Origin: Lama guanicoe
Taxonomy: Eukaryota
Assembly (NCBI GenBank): GCA_013239625.1
Contig: MU056270.1
Coordinates: forward strand, 124,001-188,000
Reading direction: 5' to 3'
Length of the DNA: 64,000 nt
Positions 755 through 48,409 of this stretch are shown here, piece by piece. The position numbers and the translations under genes are program-made. The notes under the pieces were generated by a model. The model saw only the letters and a list, made by a program, of their open reading frames with translations, was not told the origin of the DNA and searched no databases. The first letter of the stretch is position 1. Each line of letters starts with the position of its first letter.

Positions 755-837
755 ATGCCAGAGATGCAGAGCAGCTGAGCAGAAACAAGGTGACACACAT
801 TTTGTCTGTGCACGACAGCGCCAGGCCGATGTTGGAG
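755..837 (+). CDS. DUSP22: DUSP22 coding exon 3 (83 nt; (D)ARDAEQLSRNKVTHILSVHDSARPMLE)
   Basis: Acceptor ttcttctgtgacag|AT and donor GAG|gtgagg. Translation matches the DUSP22 N-terminal phosphatase domain as I recall it. Ends in phase 0, compatible with the next exon. Confidence 0.96.
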
Positions 838-6389: not shown

Positions 6390-6860
6390 GGAGCTCTCAG
6401 CCACATTTCCCCTGGCACAAGGAAGATAATTGTCCCACACACACAAGTGTGGGCAAGGATGTTCACTGCTGCTGTGTTTGGAATGCAAAAAATTGAGCCA
6501 ACCCACACATTCAGCAGAAGGGTACTGGTCAGTTGTGATACATCCATATTGAGAAATTCCCTGCAGCGGTTCAGAAAGAAGAGGAAGGATCAGATGTGTG
6601 CACGGGAGAAGGAGAATCGCTCAGCAAAAGAAGCGAGTTGCAGAGTGATATCCGCAGTGTGATCCCGTGTCTGTGAAGTTGCACGTCAGCTGTGCGTCTC
6701 TGTGTGCACATGTCTGAGTGCATAACGCACAGGGGGAGGGTCCGAAAGGGCCGTGCCAGACTCCTGAGCGGGGAAGAGGAGGAGGATGCGGGGAGAGGGC
6801 GGGAAGGAGGAGTTTCACTTTTTTCTCTATTTATTTTCTACAGTGGGAGCATCTTCATAG
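6390..6860 (+). mobile_element. Old L1 (L1ME-like) ORF2-end/3' fragment
   Basis: gcaaggatgttcactgctgctgtgtttggaatgcaaaaaattg and agttgcagagtgatatccgcagtgtgatccc resemble L1ME 3' regions. Boundaries approximate. Confidence 0.55.
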
Positions 6861-7537: not shown

Positions 7538-8204
7538 TGATTATGGTAGGTGTCGAAAACTGTCTAGTAATCGCTCTTTCTTGAATCCAGCTGCGTGTGA
7601 GTTCCCTGTGTGGGCAGTCAAATACAAAGACGGCAGGCAGCTCCACCTGGCTCTGAAGCCAGACTCCAGCACGGCTGGACAGAGAGCCTGAGACCCTCCA
7701 GGACTGCACTGGGCCCAGAGGAGAAGGCAGTCGCTCTTTGTCTCTAGGTGGAGGAGCCCTGTGTCAGGCTCCCTGTGGCCTGGCCCTCGAGAGCTCCCTG
7801 CATGTCTCTCTGGTCCTCACGCTTACCGACCAGCCTCTCCGTGCAGGTGAAGACTTTTCCAGAGCGCTCTTCTTCCTGGGCTTCTGCTCAAAGCCAGGCC
7901 CCAGTTCTGGAGCATCTCCTGCTGAGCCCCACCTCGCCCCTCTTCTCCGGACCGCCCCCCCCCCCCCCCCCGCGTGGTGAAGCGCTGCGCACACGTGCTG
8001 AGCGCTGCTCCTGGGCGGGCTTTCCCAGTCCGGCCCCTCTCAGTCCTCCACGGGGAGCAAGCCAGTGGCAAGACCCGCCAGGGTTTCCAAGCCAAGATCC
8101 CGGGAGAAGCTTGTGGCATGTGGCCTGGCCCCTCTGCTCCAGCTGGAGGGGCAGTGCGCACTGACACGCTGTACAACAGTGCCGTAAGTGCTGAAGCACG
8201 CGCC

Positions 8205-8654
8205 AGTTTGGACAGGATCCCCGTGCCCCGGGGCCGGGGCTGGGGAGATAGGTGGAGAGGAGCAGGGAGGCATGTCTGGTGCAGCGTGTGTGTGTGGGTG
8301 GGTGTGTGTGGAGGGGGTTGTCTCACGTCGGACCAGCCCATGTCTGGTGCAGCGTGTGTGTGTGTGTGTGTATGGAGGGGGTTGTCTCACGTAGGACCAG
8401 CCCATGTCTGGTGCAGCGTGTGTGTGTGTGTGGGTGTGTGTGTGGGTGTGTGGGGGGGGGTTGTCTCACGTAGGACCAGCCCATGTCTGGTGCAGCGTGT
8501 GTGTGTGTGAGTTTGGACAGGATCCCCGTGCCCCGGGGCCGGGGCTGGGGAGATAGGTGGAGAGGAGCAGGGAGGCATGTCTGGTGCAGCGGGTGTGTGT
8601 GGGTGGGTGTGTGTGGAGGGGGTTGTCTCACGTAGGACCAGCCCATGTCTGGTG

Positions 8655-8691
<37 letters not shown>

Positions 8692-9061
8692 GAGGGGGTT
8701 GTCTCACGTCGGACCAGCCCATGTCTGGTGCAGCGTGTGTGTGTGTGTGTGGAGGGGGTTGTCTCACGTAGGACCAGCCCATGTCTGGTGCAGCGTGTGT
8801 GTGTGTGTGTGGAGGGGGTTGTCTCACGTCGGACCAGCCCTTCCGGGCCGCTTGGGAACGGGGAAATAAGCCCTGGGCCGCAGGACATGTGGATGGGGCT
8901 GGGTGTAGCAAATCGGACCAGCCCATGTCTGGTGCAGCGTGTGTGTGTGTGTGTGTGTGTGGAGGGGTTGTCTCACGTCGGACCAGCCCTTCCGGGCCGC
9001 TTGGGAACGGGGAAATAAGCCCTGGGCCGCAGGACATGTGGATGGGGCTGGGTGTAGCAAA
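8205..9061. repeat. Compound minisatellite/VNTR with nested (GT)n
   Basis: Nine copies of CATGTCTGGTGCAGC followed by a GT-rich run, most continuing into GGGGTTGTCTCACGT(C/A)GGACCAGCC. Two flanking blocks are duplicated (starts 8205/8510 and ~8839/~8988). Confidence 0.95.
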
Positions 9062-12000
9062 GAGGGTGGCCAGCAGCGCGGGGTGAGGGTGGTGCCACCT
9101 TCAGTTCTCCTTTTGGCTAAGTTGGGAGTTATTCCTTCAGCTTCAGCAGATGTTAATTGAGTGCCCACCTTGCAGGAGGGACTGGGGACAAAACACAAAG
9201 AGAAGCAAGAGGTGGCCCAGCTCGGGAGGAGGCAGGCACGAGACCCTTGCAGCGGTTCAGAGCTGTGAATGCGTGGCAGGGCGGGGGGCCCGGGGCGCCC
9301 AGGAGAAAGTGGCCAGCCCCGTGGGGTCAGCCAGGCCTCGCCAAGGAGTCGACCCCGTGGAGTGACCCTGAAGGATGGCAGGGCTTGCTGGGGAGCGGTG
9401 GCACAAAAGGGCAGCTGGAGCGGAAGTGGGGGCACGGGGTGTCAGAGGCACCGGCCGTACACAGCGCAGGGCGAGCCCCGCCGGGTGAGGCTCTGCAGAG
9501 CAGGTCTGCAGGGAGCTGGGCTGGGCGAGGAGGCTCAGGGAAGACTAGGTTCTGCTCGCCAAGGCGGGGAGTCCGAGCTTGCCCTCGTGTGAAGCAGAGA
9601 CTCAGCAAAGGTTCACGAACAGCCAGGTGACACGCTCAGGTTCCTTTTCCAGGGTGCCGACTGGGGGATGGGATGGAGTGAGGGAGGGGGCACCAAGGAG
9701 ACTGCTGGGGAGCTCTTGCAGTAATCCTGGGCAGAAATTGTGAGGGACGGAACTGGGTTTTTTTTTCTGTAATCGGAAGAGTCACTTCCACAAAGTGGTC
9801 CTGCAGCGGCACCGCAGGATGCAGAGGAGTTGGAGGGGAGGGGCTCGGGGTCCGTGCAGTCCTCTGGCCATCAGCCCTGAACGAGGAGGCTCTTGTGCGT
9901 GAGTGTGTTGGGTCCTGTGGATCCTGGAAAGGGGGAGAGGCATAGGAGCAAACCGGGAAGGCTTCAGCGGGGGATGCAGTTTTGCTAAGGAGTTTAAAAG
10001 GGAAGAGGAGCCTTGTTTGCAGGAACCACAAGGAAGAGTAGATGTGTTTCTGGTCCCAGGTCAGGACAGCACAGCGTGTGGCTATAGGCCAGCAGGGACC
10101 CCACTGGTGACGGGTGTCTGGCCCACGGGCACTGGAGGGGTTGCAGGCTCCTTGGGTGAATGGCCTTGGAGTCTGCAGTCACCAATTTGAATGAGAAGCT
10201 AAAGGTGGTTAGTTGGTTAAAACCTAAAGCAGAGTTAAACGACTCTACTGGCACTGTTGTTTTTAGCCACAGGAAAATTTAGCCATTTAAATGTAGCCTG
10301 GTTTACGCAAATTTGCCATTTTTAGGTGCTCCTAATAACTCAGTACCTGGTAGGCGCTGCAGGTGGACCCCGTGCCTGCCACACCTGCAAGGGAGCGCCC
10401 CAACCTGACTTCACAAGCTGGGGGTGGGGCAGTGGCGCAGCTGAGGTCGGGCCCACATCCCTGGAAGTGCTTCCCCCTCGGGTCTGAGCCCTGGGACATC
10501 TCTGTGTGAGGCGGGGCAGAGGTGGGTGTCCGGCCCCAGGTCTGGATTGAGAGCCCCTTTCTCTCCTTTCAGTCTTCACCACGGCCAGCACAGGTGTTCC
10601 AACACTCATGACTGAGCAGGGCACCTCCGGCCAGCTCTGCCCTCTCTTCCAGGGGGTCTCGAGTGGAGGGAGGTGAAGGTCGGGGCTGGGCCATGGCTGC
10701 TGCAGCCCCGGGCAGAGGTGAGGAGGCAGACGCACCTGGAGTCTGAGAGGGAGCCTCCTTCTGAGGGCCAACTGTGGACGTGGTGTTTGCTTCCCAGGCG
10801 TTTTCCAGTTAAGGGAAGGTTGTGCATGCAGAGCAGAGGAAGGAGAGGCCTCCCCCTCGTCATCCAAACGGCTGCAGAGGGACGGCTTCCCCACGTGGCG
10901 TGATCACTCGGAGCATCTCGGACACAGAGTGGTGCCCAGACCTTGGCTTGAGCCCTCTGGTCTTGGAAACTGTTCCCGACCAGGGCAGTTAGAGGCCATT
11001 CTGGATGGTACTCGTCGTGGCCTGGTGGTGGGGGGGCTGGTCCGACTGGAATTTCCCTGTTCGGTGAAAGCCGTTGTCCGAGAGACCAGCCCCACAGCCT
11101 CCAGGGGAAGACGCTCCCAGATCTGCCCCGAGAGACTGTTAGTTCAGACCGCATGGCAGAGCCCCTGAGCCCTGGCTGGCGGAGCAGGAACAGCGTTCCC
11201 AAAGGTTTGCCTCGTCTCCCTGGTGCTCCTGAGCCCAGGGCTTCCCAGCGGCTCTGATGGGAGCCTGTCCTGCTGCTGCGTCCCCAGCGGTGCCGCGGGG
11301 ACTGCTCCACCAGGCACCCCCCCCCCAGAGCGAGGGACCGCTGACCTCCCCACAGGGGCTCTTCCTTCTGTGCCTCTTGCGAGAGGATGCAGCTGTCAAA
11401 ATAAAAATAGCCCTCAGCTTGCGTTCAGCAGCAGCTGTCGGGGAGGGAGGGCTTGGTGAAGTGTTGCCCCTCCAAGGGAGGCCCGGGACCCTGACTAGCC
11501 CACAAGCAGAGCAGCGCAAGGAAAACGCCCCTCTCCTGTCATACGTGGGGGTTGGCACCCAGACCATGGTTCACAAGTGACCTATGAGCCAGGCACATCC
11601 GGTGCGATCTCTGACCAGCCGCTCACCTGGCCCGTGGAGAACACGCTTCCTTCACAGCCTCTGTCTGCTCCCTCCACTCCTGCCCCCGCGCTTTCCCGCT
11701 GCCCTCAGCTCGTGCCCTTCTTGTGCGGCTCACGTACGGGCCTTTACCACATCCCGCCTTTGTGTGTCCTGACCCTGACCCGACCCCGACCCCACCCACG
11801 CAGGACTGGCCAGCTTCCCAGGAAGAAGCGTCCAGCTCTGAGTCAGTGTTCGGTCTGGTCCCGCGTGGAGGATGCGGCGTCGGGTCCTGAGGAACCGGGC
11901 ACGCTGCTCAGAGAGCTTCTCAGGTGCCCAAGCCCTGCAGGGGTCTCACTCCACTGTAAGCGAGAGTCTGAGGCCCACCTGCTCAGTAACCTGCAGAAGG

Positions 12001-17388: not shown

Positions 17389-19044
17389 CCCACGGACGCG
17401 TGAGGGGCAGCGCGTGTCCACACCGGGCACGGGACGGACGGAGTGAGACAGCTTTTCACAGTGTTGTTTCCTTTTACGCTTTCTTTCCCTTTAAACCTGG
17501 GCTCTGAAGCCTGCCTGGCTTGGAGGTGCTTCGGAACCTCAGGCAGCTGCGTGGAAGCGCCCAGCAGCGTCCCAAGGCAGCGCAGGCAGCGCGGCAGAGT
17601 GAGGCTGGGTGGGCAGCTCTGCTGCTCGACGGCCTCCTGCCAGCAGCCGCCCTCTGCACCTGGGCCTGTGTGGCCCTGTGGCGGGCGAGCGGCAGTAGGA
17701 CTCATTTTTGTCGAGACTCAGAAGAGCCTGTGGTGCAGGATGTAATGGTGGACCCAAAACTCAAAATACACACATGTGAATTAAGCAGGAAACTCTGTTT
17801 TGACCTCTCGTGGGGAAGGAAGGGGAATTGTGTCGCTTGGGTCTTAGATGCAGACAGCAGATTCCACTCTGAGCCGCTCCAGCGGGAAGGTGTTTTGTGA
17901 AGAGACAGCTGAGCGCTTGTGGTCTCCTCGGAGGAGCTGGGGAAACAGGCTTCCAGCTGAAGCTCCAGGAGCAGCACCCAGACCGCAGCACACAGCTGCC
18001 ACCTGATCTCCCACCACGTCCGCCACCTGCACCTGCCACACAGGTGCTCTTTACCTGTCTTACTCTTCCATGTCCTGTTTTCAAATCCGCCTCTCGTAGG
18101 TGTGTCAGCTGATGAAACCAGGCCTGAGTCTACACCCAGCAGCAGAGGAGGTTGAGAAATCTGGTTTAACGTAGCTTCTGTGTTGAAAAGTGGGATTTCC
18201 GCCGTGGGGAAGGACCACGCCGTTCCTCACAGCACACTGCACAAGCAGATGCTGCACAGGGGTTTCTGACCACCTGCCCTGACAGTAGAACGTTAATGAC
18301 CTGCTGTGGAAAAGTTGCAAATAATTCTGCAAGACAAGTTGTTTCGACTTTGACTGCTGAGGGACTCTTGGCTGTCTGTGCCACGATCCTACATTTCTCT
18401 CCTTCGTTTTCTCTCTTAGGTCAGTTATTTTTCTAGTTTCTGGTATGTGTCCCTCATTAATTATCTATGATATGGTGGCCAGGTTCTATTAGGTTAGGCT
18501 ACCAAGAGAGGAAGTTTTAAAAGTGGTTCATTAAGTCTTAGTGAAACCATATTCTTTTGCAAAGGTCACTGAGACCGATCTAGATTTTATATCTTTACTT
18601 AACATGGAAGACCTTTTGCACTGTGCTTTACGTCCCTACAAAGAAGAAGCAACCAAGGTTTTAATAAAACTCAAACTTACCATGATTTTTGTAGCATGAA
18701 TTTACATAAACATTTTTATAGATTTTGTAGCAAACTATATGAAGATCATTTTTTGAAATTGGGTCATTCTTTAAAAAAAAAATATCAGTTTGGTTTGCAA
18801 ACTTTTACTCTTCTGAACAGCAAGCAAAATAAATCACATTGTTTCCTGTGTGTGAGGCCCTGTCCCGCACCAGTGGCGTTGCAACCCCCCAACCCTCCGA
18901 CTGTCCCATAACCTGTCATCGTGTTACTGTTTCTACTGTCAGCGTTTCCTTTCTGACCAGTCAGGATCTTAAATGCAATAGAGTTAAAAAGTAGAATTTG
19001 TGAACAAGCATCTGAGATAACAGTCTTGGAACTTGTGGACGCTT

Positions 19045-19888
19045 AATGGGAAGTACTCAATTGTTTTGCTTTTTTGATACACTCTAACCTCCAAGCTGTT
19101 TGCAAACTAGAGTATGAATGTTTGTGTGCATGGTCATGGAAAATAACCAGGAACCTTAATTAAAGAGTTTTCCCCAGTTCCTTGGCAACAAAAGATGAGT
19201 GGAAAACTTCTCCTTTTTACTTTTTATTTTGACCTGAGTAAATAGTTCCTTTAAATGTTTTTCTTCACTAAGTATCATCATTTTATTTTATTTTTTATCA
19301 TTCTACAGGGGGTTAAATACCTGTGCATTCCAGCAGCGGATTCACCATCTCAAAACCTGTAAGTTGCTTTTCTCCCCCCTGTATTATTTGGGCATATTAA
19401 AAGCAAATAAAGGACTGTGAAGGCATCAGAGCCGATGGGACCTTGACGCCTGCAGGGAGGCGGGAGGCCCACAGAGGTCTGTGCTCCCTGCTTGCCGGTC
19501 CTTCGCCAGACAGCGCTGCCCGTCGGGTGTGCGTCAAAGGAGGCTTATCTCGTAAAGGGTGCCTCAAACCAGACCTTCAGCTTGCTCGCCCTCTCCCTAG
19601 AAGCTGCCGTGTCTTGTCCCATGGAAATGGAATATGAGCCACAAATGCAAGTCACACGTGTGTGATTTTAAATTTCCTAGGAACCACATTGAATAAGTTA
19701 GAAAGAAACGGGTGATGATAATTTTAATAATATGTTTATTTAACCCAATATATTCAAAATACTATCAATTCAGCATGTGCTCAATATTAAAAAAAAAGAT
19801 ATTTTACATCCTTTTATTCATACTAAGCCTTCAAAGTCTGGTATGCTTTTTATACTTAAAAAAGCAAAATAATTGAGTACTTCCCATT
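19045..19888. repeat. 31-nt inverted repeat (arms 19045-19075 and 19858-19888) flanking DUSP22 exon 4
   Basis: AATGGGAAGTACTCAATTGTTTTGCTTTTTT versus AAAAAAGCAAAATAATTGAGTACTTCCCATT: 30/31 complementary, and the mismatch is G-U in RNA. Confidence 0.95.
19309..19358 (+). CDS. DUSP22: DUSP22 coding exon 4 (50 nt; GVKYLCIPAADSPSQNL), carrying the general-acid Asp of the AADSP loop
   Basis: Acceptor ttttttatcattctacag|GG and donor CCT|gtaagt. In frame with exons 3 and 5. Confidence 0.96.
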
Positions 19889-19948
19889 TCCACTTGGACA
19901 GCTGCATTTCAAGTGCCCAGAGCTTCAGGGGCTACTGGCCACCCAGTG
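19607..19948. mobile_element. MER33-like hAT-Charlie DNA transposon carrying a non-MER33 31-nt insert
   Basis: Matches the remembered MER33 consensus (attttaataatatgtttatttaacccaatatattcaaaat; catactaagccttcaaagtctgg; catttcaagtgc). Confidence 0.8.
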
Positions 19949-21304
19949 TCTCTTTGAGAGACTAGGTTTCCTGGTTGAAGGAGCCCCGCTCTGCCTTCCC
20001 CACGGCCAAGCACATCTCTGATGCTGCTTTCACTCTATCCTCCCTCCAGAGTCGTGCTTGCTCTCCTTTCCAGACCCCCCTCCCCGTCATCCCAGACCCG
20101 TGGGATTAGGCTTGGGCAGAACCTGGGGGTGGGGGGGCGGGAGCCCGAAGACCCTCCAAGGTTGCAGCTATGACGTCACACTCCCCGGGTCCAGAAGTGC
20201 CCAGGATGACGTGGAGTGGGTGAGAGCCTTCTCGAAGCCTGGGTTTTGAGCCGTGCAGGCCGAGAGGCAAGAAGTCAGTAACCTGGCTGTGCTGTGCATC
20301 CAGTGACCCAGCCTCCGCTCTCAGGCTCACCTGCTTGTGCAGTTCAGGTCGGACACCACAACCCTTCTGGAATCACTGGTTTCTGCACCTCACCAGGGAA
20401 CCTGTAAGCTGCGATGTTTGTGAAGTTGGGAGGCCACAGGCTTCCCAGGACCCATTGGCATGATTCTTAAGCTCTGCTGCCTGCAAGTCCTACGTATGAG
20501 AAGTGCAGACCATGTAGTCTCTGGATCCCAAGGGCCCCGCCCCTCTGAGACCTGGCCAGTGCTGGACTAGCAGCCAGCCTTGGTTTTTCACTGCTGGGAA
20601 GCGGAGAGACCACAGGGTATGCAGTAACTTTGTGGCATCCACCTTTTAAAAGGGGGGCAGCTGCAGTCAGAGGCATTGGTGTGGAGAGGAGGAGGGGCAC
20701 GAGCAGGCAGGAGGTGCAGTGTCAGACCCAGGAAGAGGGGAGGAGCTGGACGCGGGCAGGTACATCCCACCCATGGCCTGTGTCCCACGCTGCCTCTCCG
20801 TGTGTCACAGAAGCCAGTCTGTGAGACCGAGGATGGTGAAGGGAAGATTTCGTAGGGCCCTAGGAGGACAGCGGTAGCCTAGGTCTGAAGGAGAAGTGTC
20901 AGAGCACTTCCTTGGTTACCAGTCGTGTCAAGAAACAGAAGTGGTTGCAGGGCATGGTGTGCACGGAAGGAAGTAAGCCACTGCCTTTCTCTCGAGACCA
21001 CAGCAATCTTCTGCCCATGTTTTGGTGGCTATTTTTAGAGCGGTTGCTTTGCTCTTATCTCAAACCGAGATTCTGATATACTGTTGAACTTGTCAATAGC
21101 TGGTTGGCATTGTGACTCTTTGGAAGAATCAGACCAACACCTCCTAGGCGTTGGTGGTCAGAGCAGGTGGCCACTGTGCTCGAGCTGTTCCCAGAACTTC
21201 TCAGCTTTGCTGGAGTCAGGCCCCTCGACGTCCAGGACAAGGGTCCTGACCCACCCAGTGCAGACTGCCTGCTGAGTGGTCCTGTGCTGTGCGGCCAGTG
21301 AGCA

Positions 21305-27612: not shown

Positions 27613-27687
27613 GACAAGACATTTCAGAGAAAGTATTAAATTCATCCACGAGTGCCGGCTCGGGGGCGAGGGCTGCCTCGTACACTG
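27613..27687 (+). CDS. DUSP22: DUSP22 coding exon 5 (75 nt; TRHFRESIKFIHECRLGGEGCLVH-C)
   Basis: Acceptor ttttcctcccccag|G and donor TG|gtacgt. The peptide is visible in ORF 27584..27799. Confidence 0.96.
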
Positions 27688-29666: not shown

Positions 29667-29838
29667 CCTGGCTGGCGTCTCCCGAAGTGTGACCCTGGTG
29701 GTCGCGTACATCATGACGGTCACCGACTTCGGCTGGGAAGACGCCCTCCACACCGTGCGTGCAGGGAGGTCCTGCGCCAACCCCAACCTGGGCTTCCAGA
29801 GGCAGCTCCAGGAGTTCGAGAAGCACCAAGTCCACCAG
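29667..29838 (+). CDS. DUSP22: DUSP22 coding exon 6 (172 nt; LAGVSRSVTLVVAYIMTVTDFGWEDALHTVRAGRSCANPNLGFQRQLQEFEKHQVHQ)
   Basis: Acceptor ctgcag|C and donor CAG|gtaact. With exon 5 it forms the HCX5R motif HCLAGVSR; AYIM and NPNxGF motifs of atypical DUSPs are present. Confidence 0.97.
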
Positions 29839-30268: not shown

Positions 30269-30341
30269 TTCCGGCAGTGGCTGAGGGAGGAGTATGGAGA
30301 GGACCCTTTGCGGGACGCAGAAGCAGCCAGAAGCATCCTGG
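30269..30341 (+). CDS. DUSP22: DUSP22 coding exon 7, spliced form (73 nt; FRQWLREEYGEDPLRDAEAARSIL)
   Basis: Acceptor ccttctccag|TT. Internal donor CTGG|gtaaat (phase 1) joins in frame to exon 8. Confidence 0.92.
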
Positions 30342-30451
30342 GTAAATATAAAGAGCAGGGGCGTGCAGAGCCCCCGCCTGGCACCAGGCGCTGGAGCAGC
30401 TTCCAGGCCCTGGCTCCTCTGCCCCATGGCAGCCACACCACGGAGACCTAG
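30269..30451 (+). CDS. DUSP22: DUSP22 exon 7 extended (intron-retaining) form ending GKYKEQGRAEPPPGTRRWSSFQALAPLPHGSHTTET*
   Basis: The frame stays open past the donor to TAG at 30449-30451. The tail resembles the long mammalian DUSP22 isoform ending TTET (from memory). Confidence 0.85.
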   Translation, partial: FRQWLREEYGEDPLRDAEAARSILGKYKEQGRAEPPPGTRRWSSFQALAPLPHGSHTTET

Positions 30452-31634
30452 CCTGGGCCTCGCTCCTGCCACTCCCACTCGCCCTCCGTGCCGTCCTGCT
30501 GGGTACCCTGGTTGCTGGCCTGGCCCGAGGACTGGAAGTGGGTGTCTGGTGAATCAGGCCCCTCCCAAGAACCACTCCCAGCTTCTGCGCTGCCTGGATG
30601 CTGCTGCCCCTCGTGTCCTGGCGAGCCGGGGTGCGTGTGCACACCTGTGTGCACGTGCGTACGTGAGCATGTCTGTGCATGTGTGAGTGTGAACTCTGCA
30701 TGTTCACGTTACGGGAACCACCACAAACCCTGCACTGTGGGACTGGCTGTGCTGCTTCTCCCAAGGCTCCACGGGGGGGGGGGTACGTTTGGAGTTGGCC
30801 TTGGGAGAGCCATTTAGCCAGGGCAGCCCGTGCCTGTGAGCAGACGGTGGGGAGGGCTCAGGGGGCAGGGGCCTCCCCGGAGCCCAGGGTGCTGGTGCCG
30901 GGCGGCAGGGGCCCAGCTGCCTCCTGAGGGTGTTCCTGGGACCCTTGGAGGCTGGGGCAGTGGTGAGCCCGGCCTCGACCCCTCCCGCCCAAGTCAGCCC
31001 CTTCTCTGCCTTTCACACCCTGAGGGCCCTTGGTGGCTGTCCTTCCGCACCAGCTTTCACCGCATGGGGAGCAGCCCCACGTCCGCCCTCTGCCTCTGTC
31101 CAGCTTCGCCTCTCCCCGCCGCCTGCCGCTCTTGCTGCCAGGGCCTCTCTGCAAGGTCTGCATGCGCCTCGGAGCTGGAAGAAAGAGCGGTTCTGGGCAC
31201 CGTCACGGTTTCCGCTTGAATATGCGTTTTTGAAGTCCCTGAGCACTAATCAGGCACCTTTGTGTGTGCTGTGGATTTGAAACCTGCTCTCAGCTACCTC
31301 GTTAAGTGTTTTCGAGGTGTTTTCATTATTCCAGTCAGTTCTGCCTCACAGCTGGAACTGTTCCATCACAACTGCGTCTGAAGCCAGAGGGGAAAGGATC
31401 ACATCACTGGGCTACTCAGAGCTTCTGACTTGGGCTGCAGGGGTGCCTCCTGGTGGGTAAAGTCACCAGCCAGGTGCGACCTGTGCGCGCTGAGCAGCCC
31501 CGTGGCCCAGGCCTCTGTGCTGACTCGGGTGGTCTCAGCACGAAGAGCCACGCAGATGAAGACACATACTCAGCCTCTCCCTAAACAGACGTTGCAGCCC
31601 AGTTTCTCCGAATTCCACCACAAAAGGGTCCCTG

Positions 31635-48030: not shown

Positions 48031-48409
48031 AGACGTAGCCCCACACTCAGTGTTCCAGCTCAGCTGTTTCAATACCGCTTACAGAAGATTCAACTTGGTC
48101 GATCAACTGCCTGAATTAGAAGCTCAGGAATGTGCTAACCCTTTGTCTGTCTCTCTCTCTTAACATAAAAGTAGCTTTTTTCTAAAGATAAAAGTGACAT
48201 ATGCTAACTACTGAAATAGTCCATATGTATATGAAATATTTTTAAAAGTAAGAATTATCTTCACCTCTTCATCTAGAGATAAGCAACCTTAATGTCTCCT
48301 GAATACTCCTTTTGCTGTGTCTCTAGGCAGATTGGATAGATGGATGGTAGGTAGGTGGTAGGTAGGTGGTAGGTAGGTGGTTGGTAGGTAGGTGATAGGT
48401 AGATGGTAG

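Follow-up and report, generated by a model that had tools for sequence, protein, structure and literature searches.

We found that the inverted repeat bracketing exon 4 of DUSP22 in Lama guanicoe most likely arose by a polymerase template switch, in which a short piece of intron 3 (the left arm) was recently copied in inverted orientation into intron 4, where the copy now forms the right arm. The window in which the repeat lies is the whole 64,000-nt stretch of contig MU056270.1 that was analysed, and all positions are those of the window unless another locus is named. Considering the anatomy of the insertion together with the predicted folding of the transcript, we judge it likely that the right arm is a recent templated insertion into an old dispersed repeat and that the predicted stem around exon 4 is a neutral by-product of this event.

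The gene on the plus strand is DUSP22, since the translation of its exon 6 agrees with DUSP22 chains of solved structure at 51 of 54 residues (E 3e-31). Exon 4, which reads GVKYLCIPAADSPSQN and carries a strong 5′ splice site (GTAAGT), begins at G47, and D57, the catalytic aspartate, consequently falls within it. The initial annotation had proposed that skipping of this exon would shift the frame and remove the catalytic residue, and both proposals were borne out: exon 3 read straight into exon 5 gives DKTFQRKY*, and D57, numbered from G47, is lost, a residue whose role is described in PMC7589817, where its mutation cut kcat 26–31-fold. A junction downstream of exon 6 would make the exon-4-skipped transcript a candidate for nonsense-mediated decay (NMD). 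Elsewhere in the gene, the frame of exon 7 (window about 30278–30460) stays open for about 60 codons before it reaches a stop, in keeping with the 205-aa isoform that PMC5356586 describes for human, in which intron 7 is retained, and intron 3 contains a tandem repeat of 60–64-nt units with GT runs (8271–9061).

Table 1. Features of DUSP22 and of the inverted repeat around its exon 4 (positions in the window).
Feature	Position	Strand	Length (nt)	Remarks
DUSP22 exon 3	755..837	+	83	Upstream partner of the skip
DUSP22 intron 3			18,471	Contains the left arm
Left arm	19045..19075	+	31	In DUSP22 intron 3; single-copy; likely donor template
DUSP22 exon 4	19309..19358	+	50	G47–N62 including catalytic D57; from AG/GT ends and translation; frame runs on into exon 5
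DUSP22 intron 4			8,254	Contains the dispersed repeat and the right arm
Old dispersed repeat copy	19615..19942 (ends approximate)			In intron 4; broken by the right arm; from genome search and alignments
Right arm	19858..19888	+	31	Inverted copy of the left arm; net +21 nt versus repeat consensus
DUSP22 exon 5	27613..27687	+	75	Premature stop at codon 9 upon exon 4 skip
DUSP22 exon 6	29667..29838	+	172	

The geometry first described for the arms was confirmed: they are complementary at 30 of 31 positions, are separated by 782 nt and enclose the 50-nt exon 4. The single mismatch, G19063 opposite T, becomes a G-U pair in plus-strand RNA, so that RNAduplex pairs all 31 positions of the transcript at −43.4 kcal/mol. 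Complementarity breaks off abruptly at either end of the arms, and the pair is the sole inverted repeat of at least 22 nt at 90% with a spacer of 50–3000 nt in the window. No inverted repeat of at least 22 nt at 90% appeared in any of eight Markov shuffles of the window, where the longest reached 16 matches, and the inverted repeat is not explained by chance. An inversion of the spacer was rejected because exon 4 stands in the sense orientation and the repeat that hosts the right arm is collinear across it.

The right arm sits inside a copy of an old dispersed repeat, which resembles the hAT-Charlie element MER33. A genome search with 19600–19960 as the query returned 906 candidate places, of which 40 were scored, and the 39 scored copies other than the window's own had identities of 72–80%. 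None of these 39 aligned past query position 262, the right arm beginning at 259, and with more permissive BLAST settings the alignment went on to 19877–19942 in four of the 29 copies fetched. In the multiple alignment of the fetched copies the window rejoins the repeat consensus immediately after the right arm, and in the right-arm columns all 29 other copies have 6–11 letters versus 31 in the window. The net gain (Table 1) is made up of 18 nt (about 19867–19884) between the motifs AGCA and CAT, plus three extra A. These two motifs likewise flank the matching part of the left arm, and they occur in the repeat consensus, against which, and not against the true ancestral allele, they were judged as junction microhomologies. 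The left arm itself is unique: a search with 18880–19165 gave one match in the genome, which was itself, and the 18-mer common to the arms had two hits in 2.05 Gb, one in each arm.

The interruption of the repeat, the flanking microhomologies and the single-copy left arm together point to the right arm as an inverted insertion templated by the left arm. The marks of a templated insertion are present in each respect: there is extra sequence relative to 29 sister repeat copies, which serve as a proxy for the ancestor and are not orthologues; it is the reverse complement of a nearby template, the left arm; and microhomologies with the repeat consensus lie at the junctions. We infer the direction of copying, from left to right arm, by polarising against the repeat consensus only. 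In such an event a short match (AGCA or the A run) would have let a nascent or broken 3′ end within the repeat pair with the opposite strand 0.8 kb upstream, at the site of the left arm, where about 18–27 nt would have been copied. At another short match (CAT/CATT) the end would then have switched back to the template it had left, and one substitution has arisen in the arms since. Such an event is of the MMBIR/FoSTeS or polymerase-theta type, its anatomy being no guide to the enzyme. The short-range template switches known from catalogues span less than the proposed 782-nt jump, which counts against a template switch.

The near-perfect complementarity of arms on both sides of an exon is also what would be expected of an ancient conserved RNA structure, or of the terminal inverted repeats of a transposon that had captured exon 4. 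We regard this as very improbable and as largely refuted, since the right arm is missing from all 29 sister repeat copies and the repeat continues across it, no target-site duplication of 2–12 nt was found, and the shared 18-mer occurs nowhere in the genome outside the two arms. Rfam gave no matches in the window. A DNA transposon or MITE with terminal inverted repeats was rejected in the same way, as there is no target-site duplication and the ends are not multi-copy. The arms are about 3% apart (1/31; 95% CI 0.1–18%) versus a divergence of 17.4% between the window's repeat copy and the consensus of the 29 other copies, which themselves diverge by 9–19%; the probability of at most one arm mismatch is 0.009 at 20% pairwise divergence and 0.0002 at 30%. 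These values indicate that the insertion is much younger than its host repeat, barring selection or gene conversion that kept the arms alike, and the stem was probably rightly described at the outset as lineage-specific. From this age we infer that the insertion postdates the split from primates and that the right arm is missing in human. The apparently recent origin of the right arm argues against deep conservation of the stem; the sole change in the arms preserves pairing as G-U and is a single event.

An inverted local copy with microhomology is likewise the appearance of fold-back or amplification chimeras, and the right arm could in principle be such an artefact of assembly or library preparation. 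We give this very little weight. The arms are not identical, differing by one base, and 14 of the 17 DNA runs listed contain 93–98% of 130 words sampled from 18900–20100; these 14 come from six studies under four organism labels and include one run that is possibly the source, and the other three runs contain almost none of the words. When the possible source run was excluded, 13 runs from five studies were left, six of which stood at 0.96–0.97. A genome without the insertion would lose about 5–6 of the 130 words, giving an expected ceiling of about 0.95; as the probability of four or fewer words being hit is 0.23–0.37, the word counts are supportive, not decisive. RNA runs contained 9–37% of the sampled words and were not counted as evidence. 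Overall, an artefact origin of the right arm is unlikely.

Having set out why the right arm is best read as a templated insertion, we consider the structure it would create. Folding of 18945–19988 paired 30 of the 31 arm positions at probabilities of 0.95–1.0, and the minimum free energy was −294.8 kcal/mol versus −272 to −275 kcal/mol with six shuffled right arms, a gain of about 20 kcal/mol. The stem is thus predicted to form in the pre-mRNA, and the features on which looping-out of an exon depends, complementary arms and a stable duplex around the exon, are in place, the duplex as a prediction. The left arm ends 233 nt before exon 4 and the right arm starts 499 nt after it. Masking of the splice sites by the stem is not predicted: their accessibility (3′/5′) was 0.52/0.67 with the arm versus 0.38–0.39/0.51–0.52 with three arm shuffles, and so was not lowered by the arm. 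From the exon 3 donor to the exon 5 acceptor is 26.8 kb, which the stem shortens by only 0.8 kb. Back-splicing of the lone 50-nt exon was judged unlikely on the basis of general size limits.

The genomic background was assessed in a control scan of 120 stretches of 10 kb (1,192,070 non-N bases) for inverted repeats of at least 22 nt at 90% with spacers of 50–3000 nt, which gave 14 rows and, once three CA microsatellite rows had been dropped, nine loci. Five of these nine form a duplex of −40 kcal/mol or below on both strands, which in 1.19 Mb corresponds to 4.2 per Mb (95% interval 1.4–9.8) and would mean several thousand such duplexes in the genome. Homology extended past the arms in eight of the nine loci, as in repeat pairs (by flank scores, with alignments for L123 and L141), and none of the nine was a sharp-ended pair of 30 nt at 95%. 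With five stable duplexes and no sharp-ended pair among the nine, the stability of the DUSP22 stem is commonplace, whereas an origin such as that of its right arm is uncommon. Two control loci are recorded here in their own right. At L141, positions 7887–8031 and about 9029–9173 form an inverted pair about 1 kb apart with 124 matches in 142 columns, the first 27 perfect, which may be either a pair of repeats or a second local inverted duplication, of greater length; at L051, positions 6828–6860 and about 9113–9145 are inverted at 27 of 33 positions, 2.25 kb apart and devoid of flank homology, and make a candidate, though a weak one, for a templated insertion of greater age. The window also contains a GGTA-type tetranucleotide repeat array (48345–48409).

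The question that follows is whether the stem affects splicing of exon 4. On the preferred reading, the arms would pair in the pre-mRNA but exon 4 would lie in an open 782-nt loop and probably be spliced largely as it is in mammals lacking the arm, in which it is already skippable and coupled to NMD. According to PMC5356586, exon-4-skipped DUSP22 is readily detected in normal human lymphocytes at a level equal to the included form, and its 54-aa product was never detected; skipping is thus abundant in human, and if the arm is missing there, as its age implies, exon 4 skipping needs no stem. Other reports on DUSP22 splicing concern different points: in its statements on the gene PMC12637451 just cites PMC5356586, PMC6615926 describes an alternate promoter event, and PMC5435706 reports altered Dusp22 splicing in mouse FUS and SMA models, the exon being unnamed in the passages concerned. 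Neutrality is nevertheless the default and not a result, since exons within loops closed by intronic duplexes show lower inclusion on average (PMC8052449).

The same mutational origin could be combined with a stem that measurably lowers exon 4 inclusion and so sends more DUSP22 mRNA to NMD in this lineage, which we think unlikely while granting it a real chance. The predicted stem is strong and its arms have little competing structure, the right arm is transcribed when only 499 nt separate it from the 5′ splice site and 7.7 kb still lie ahead up to the exon 5 acceptor, and exon 4, a short exon, is one that human cells can already skip (PMC5356586). Moreover, loop-out by intronic duplexes is established (PMC13019944, PMC13019027, PMC8052449): enrichment of inverted Alu pairs is seen around exons that can be skipped (PMC13019027), and in seven reporters inclusion rose by about 1 to over 40% once one Alu arm was removed (PMC13019944). 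Set against this are the distance of the arms from the splice sites, which the fold leaves unmasked, the strength of the 5′ splice site, a duplex of 31 bp with eight G-C pairs, roughly one-tenth the length of one formed by Alu elements, and the skipping of exon 4 in human, probably without the arm. The boldest version, in which one template-switch error would have built a working 31-bp exon-looping stem and, by increasing NMD-coupled skipping of the exon for the catalytic aspartate, shifted the dosage of a T-cell phosphatase, giving lineage-specific splicing a single-step origin that involves no transposon, seems to us improbable, and more so than a measurable effect on inclusion as such. The role of DUSP22 attenuator assigned to the stem in the initial annotation finds no support in the anatomy of the insertion, the abundance of skipping in human, the predicted accessibility of the splice sites or the frequency of such duplexes, about 4 per Mb.

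The preferred reading, a templated insertion with a neutral stem, describes an unremarkable scar of mutation whose side effect can be tested: a clean, polarised templated inverted insertion that was noticed since it broke an old repeat. The mutation class is already known, and what is new here is the origin of the right arm. PMC8421209 reports 10 and 11 classical germline templated insertions of at least 25 bp in two people, with microhomology at 138/155 and 135/148 junctions of all classes, and PMC5453318 reports that template switching generates new inverted repeats. The DUSP22 insertion resembles the MMB-TI of the former and the four-point template switches of the latter in being a short reverse-complement copy from nearby, with junction microhomologies and a new inverted repeat as its product. 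It differs from them in that the template lies 0.8 kb off and is not adjacent, the copies bracket an exon, and the insertion was detected against a repeat-family consensus and not against an ancestral allele. Among the literature listed, no title or abstract opening presents a template-switch route to an exon-looping stem, which does not imply its absence from print.

If the stem does alter exon 4 inclusion, a DNA-copying error, and not only paired transposons, would be shown capable of building such an exon-looping structure in a single event, in a gene whose product is a tumour-suppressor and T-cell signalling phosphatase. Human DUSP22 Δ-exon-4, p.G47fs9* (PMC5356586), shares with the skip considered here the exon, the frameshift and the position of the stop codon; the human transcript, however, was observed, with the arm probably absent, whereas in Lama guanicoe the skip is a prediction from the DNA sequence. 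Like the PCCRs of PMC8052449, for which an association with reduced inclusion and with A-to-I editing is described, the predicted stem joins short intronic segments over a long range in a duplex below −30 kcal/mol and loops out an exon; unlike PCCRs, which are defined by conservation, it has a right arm that is recent by its anatomy. The main texts of PMC8052449, PMC13019027 and PMC13019944 do not name DUSP22. As in the inverted-Alu loop-out described in the last two, a lineage-specific intronic pair flanks a skippable exon within 1 kb. Those pairs, however, are about 300 bp versus 31 bp here, stem from two retrotransposon insertions versus a DNA-copying error, and have been linked to splicing, whereas the DUSP22 stem is known from sequence and prediction; in this comparison it would bear on how short a loop-out stem can be.
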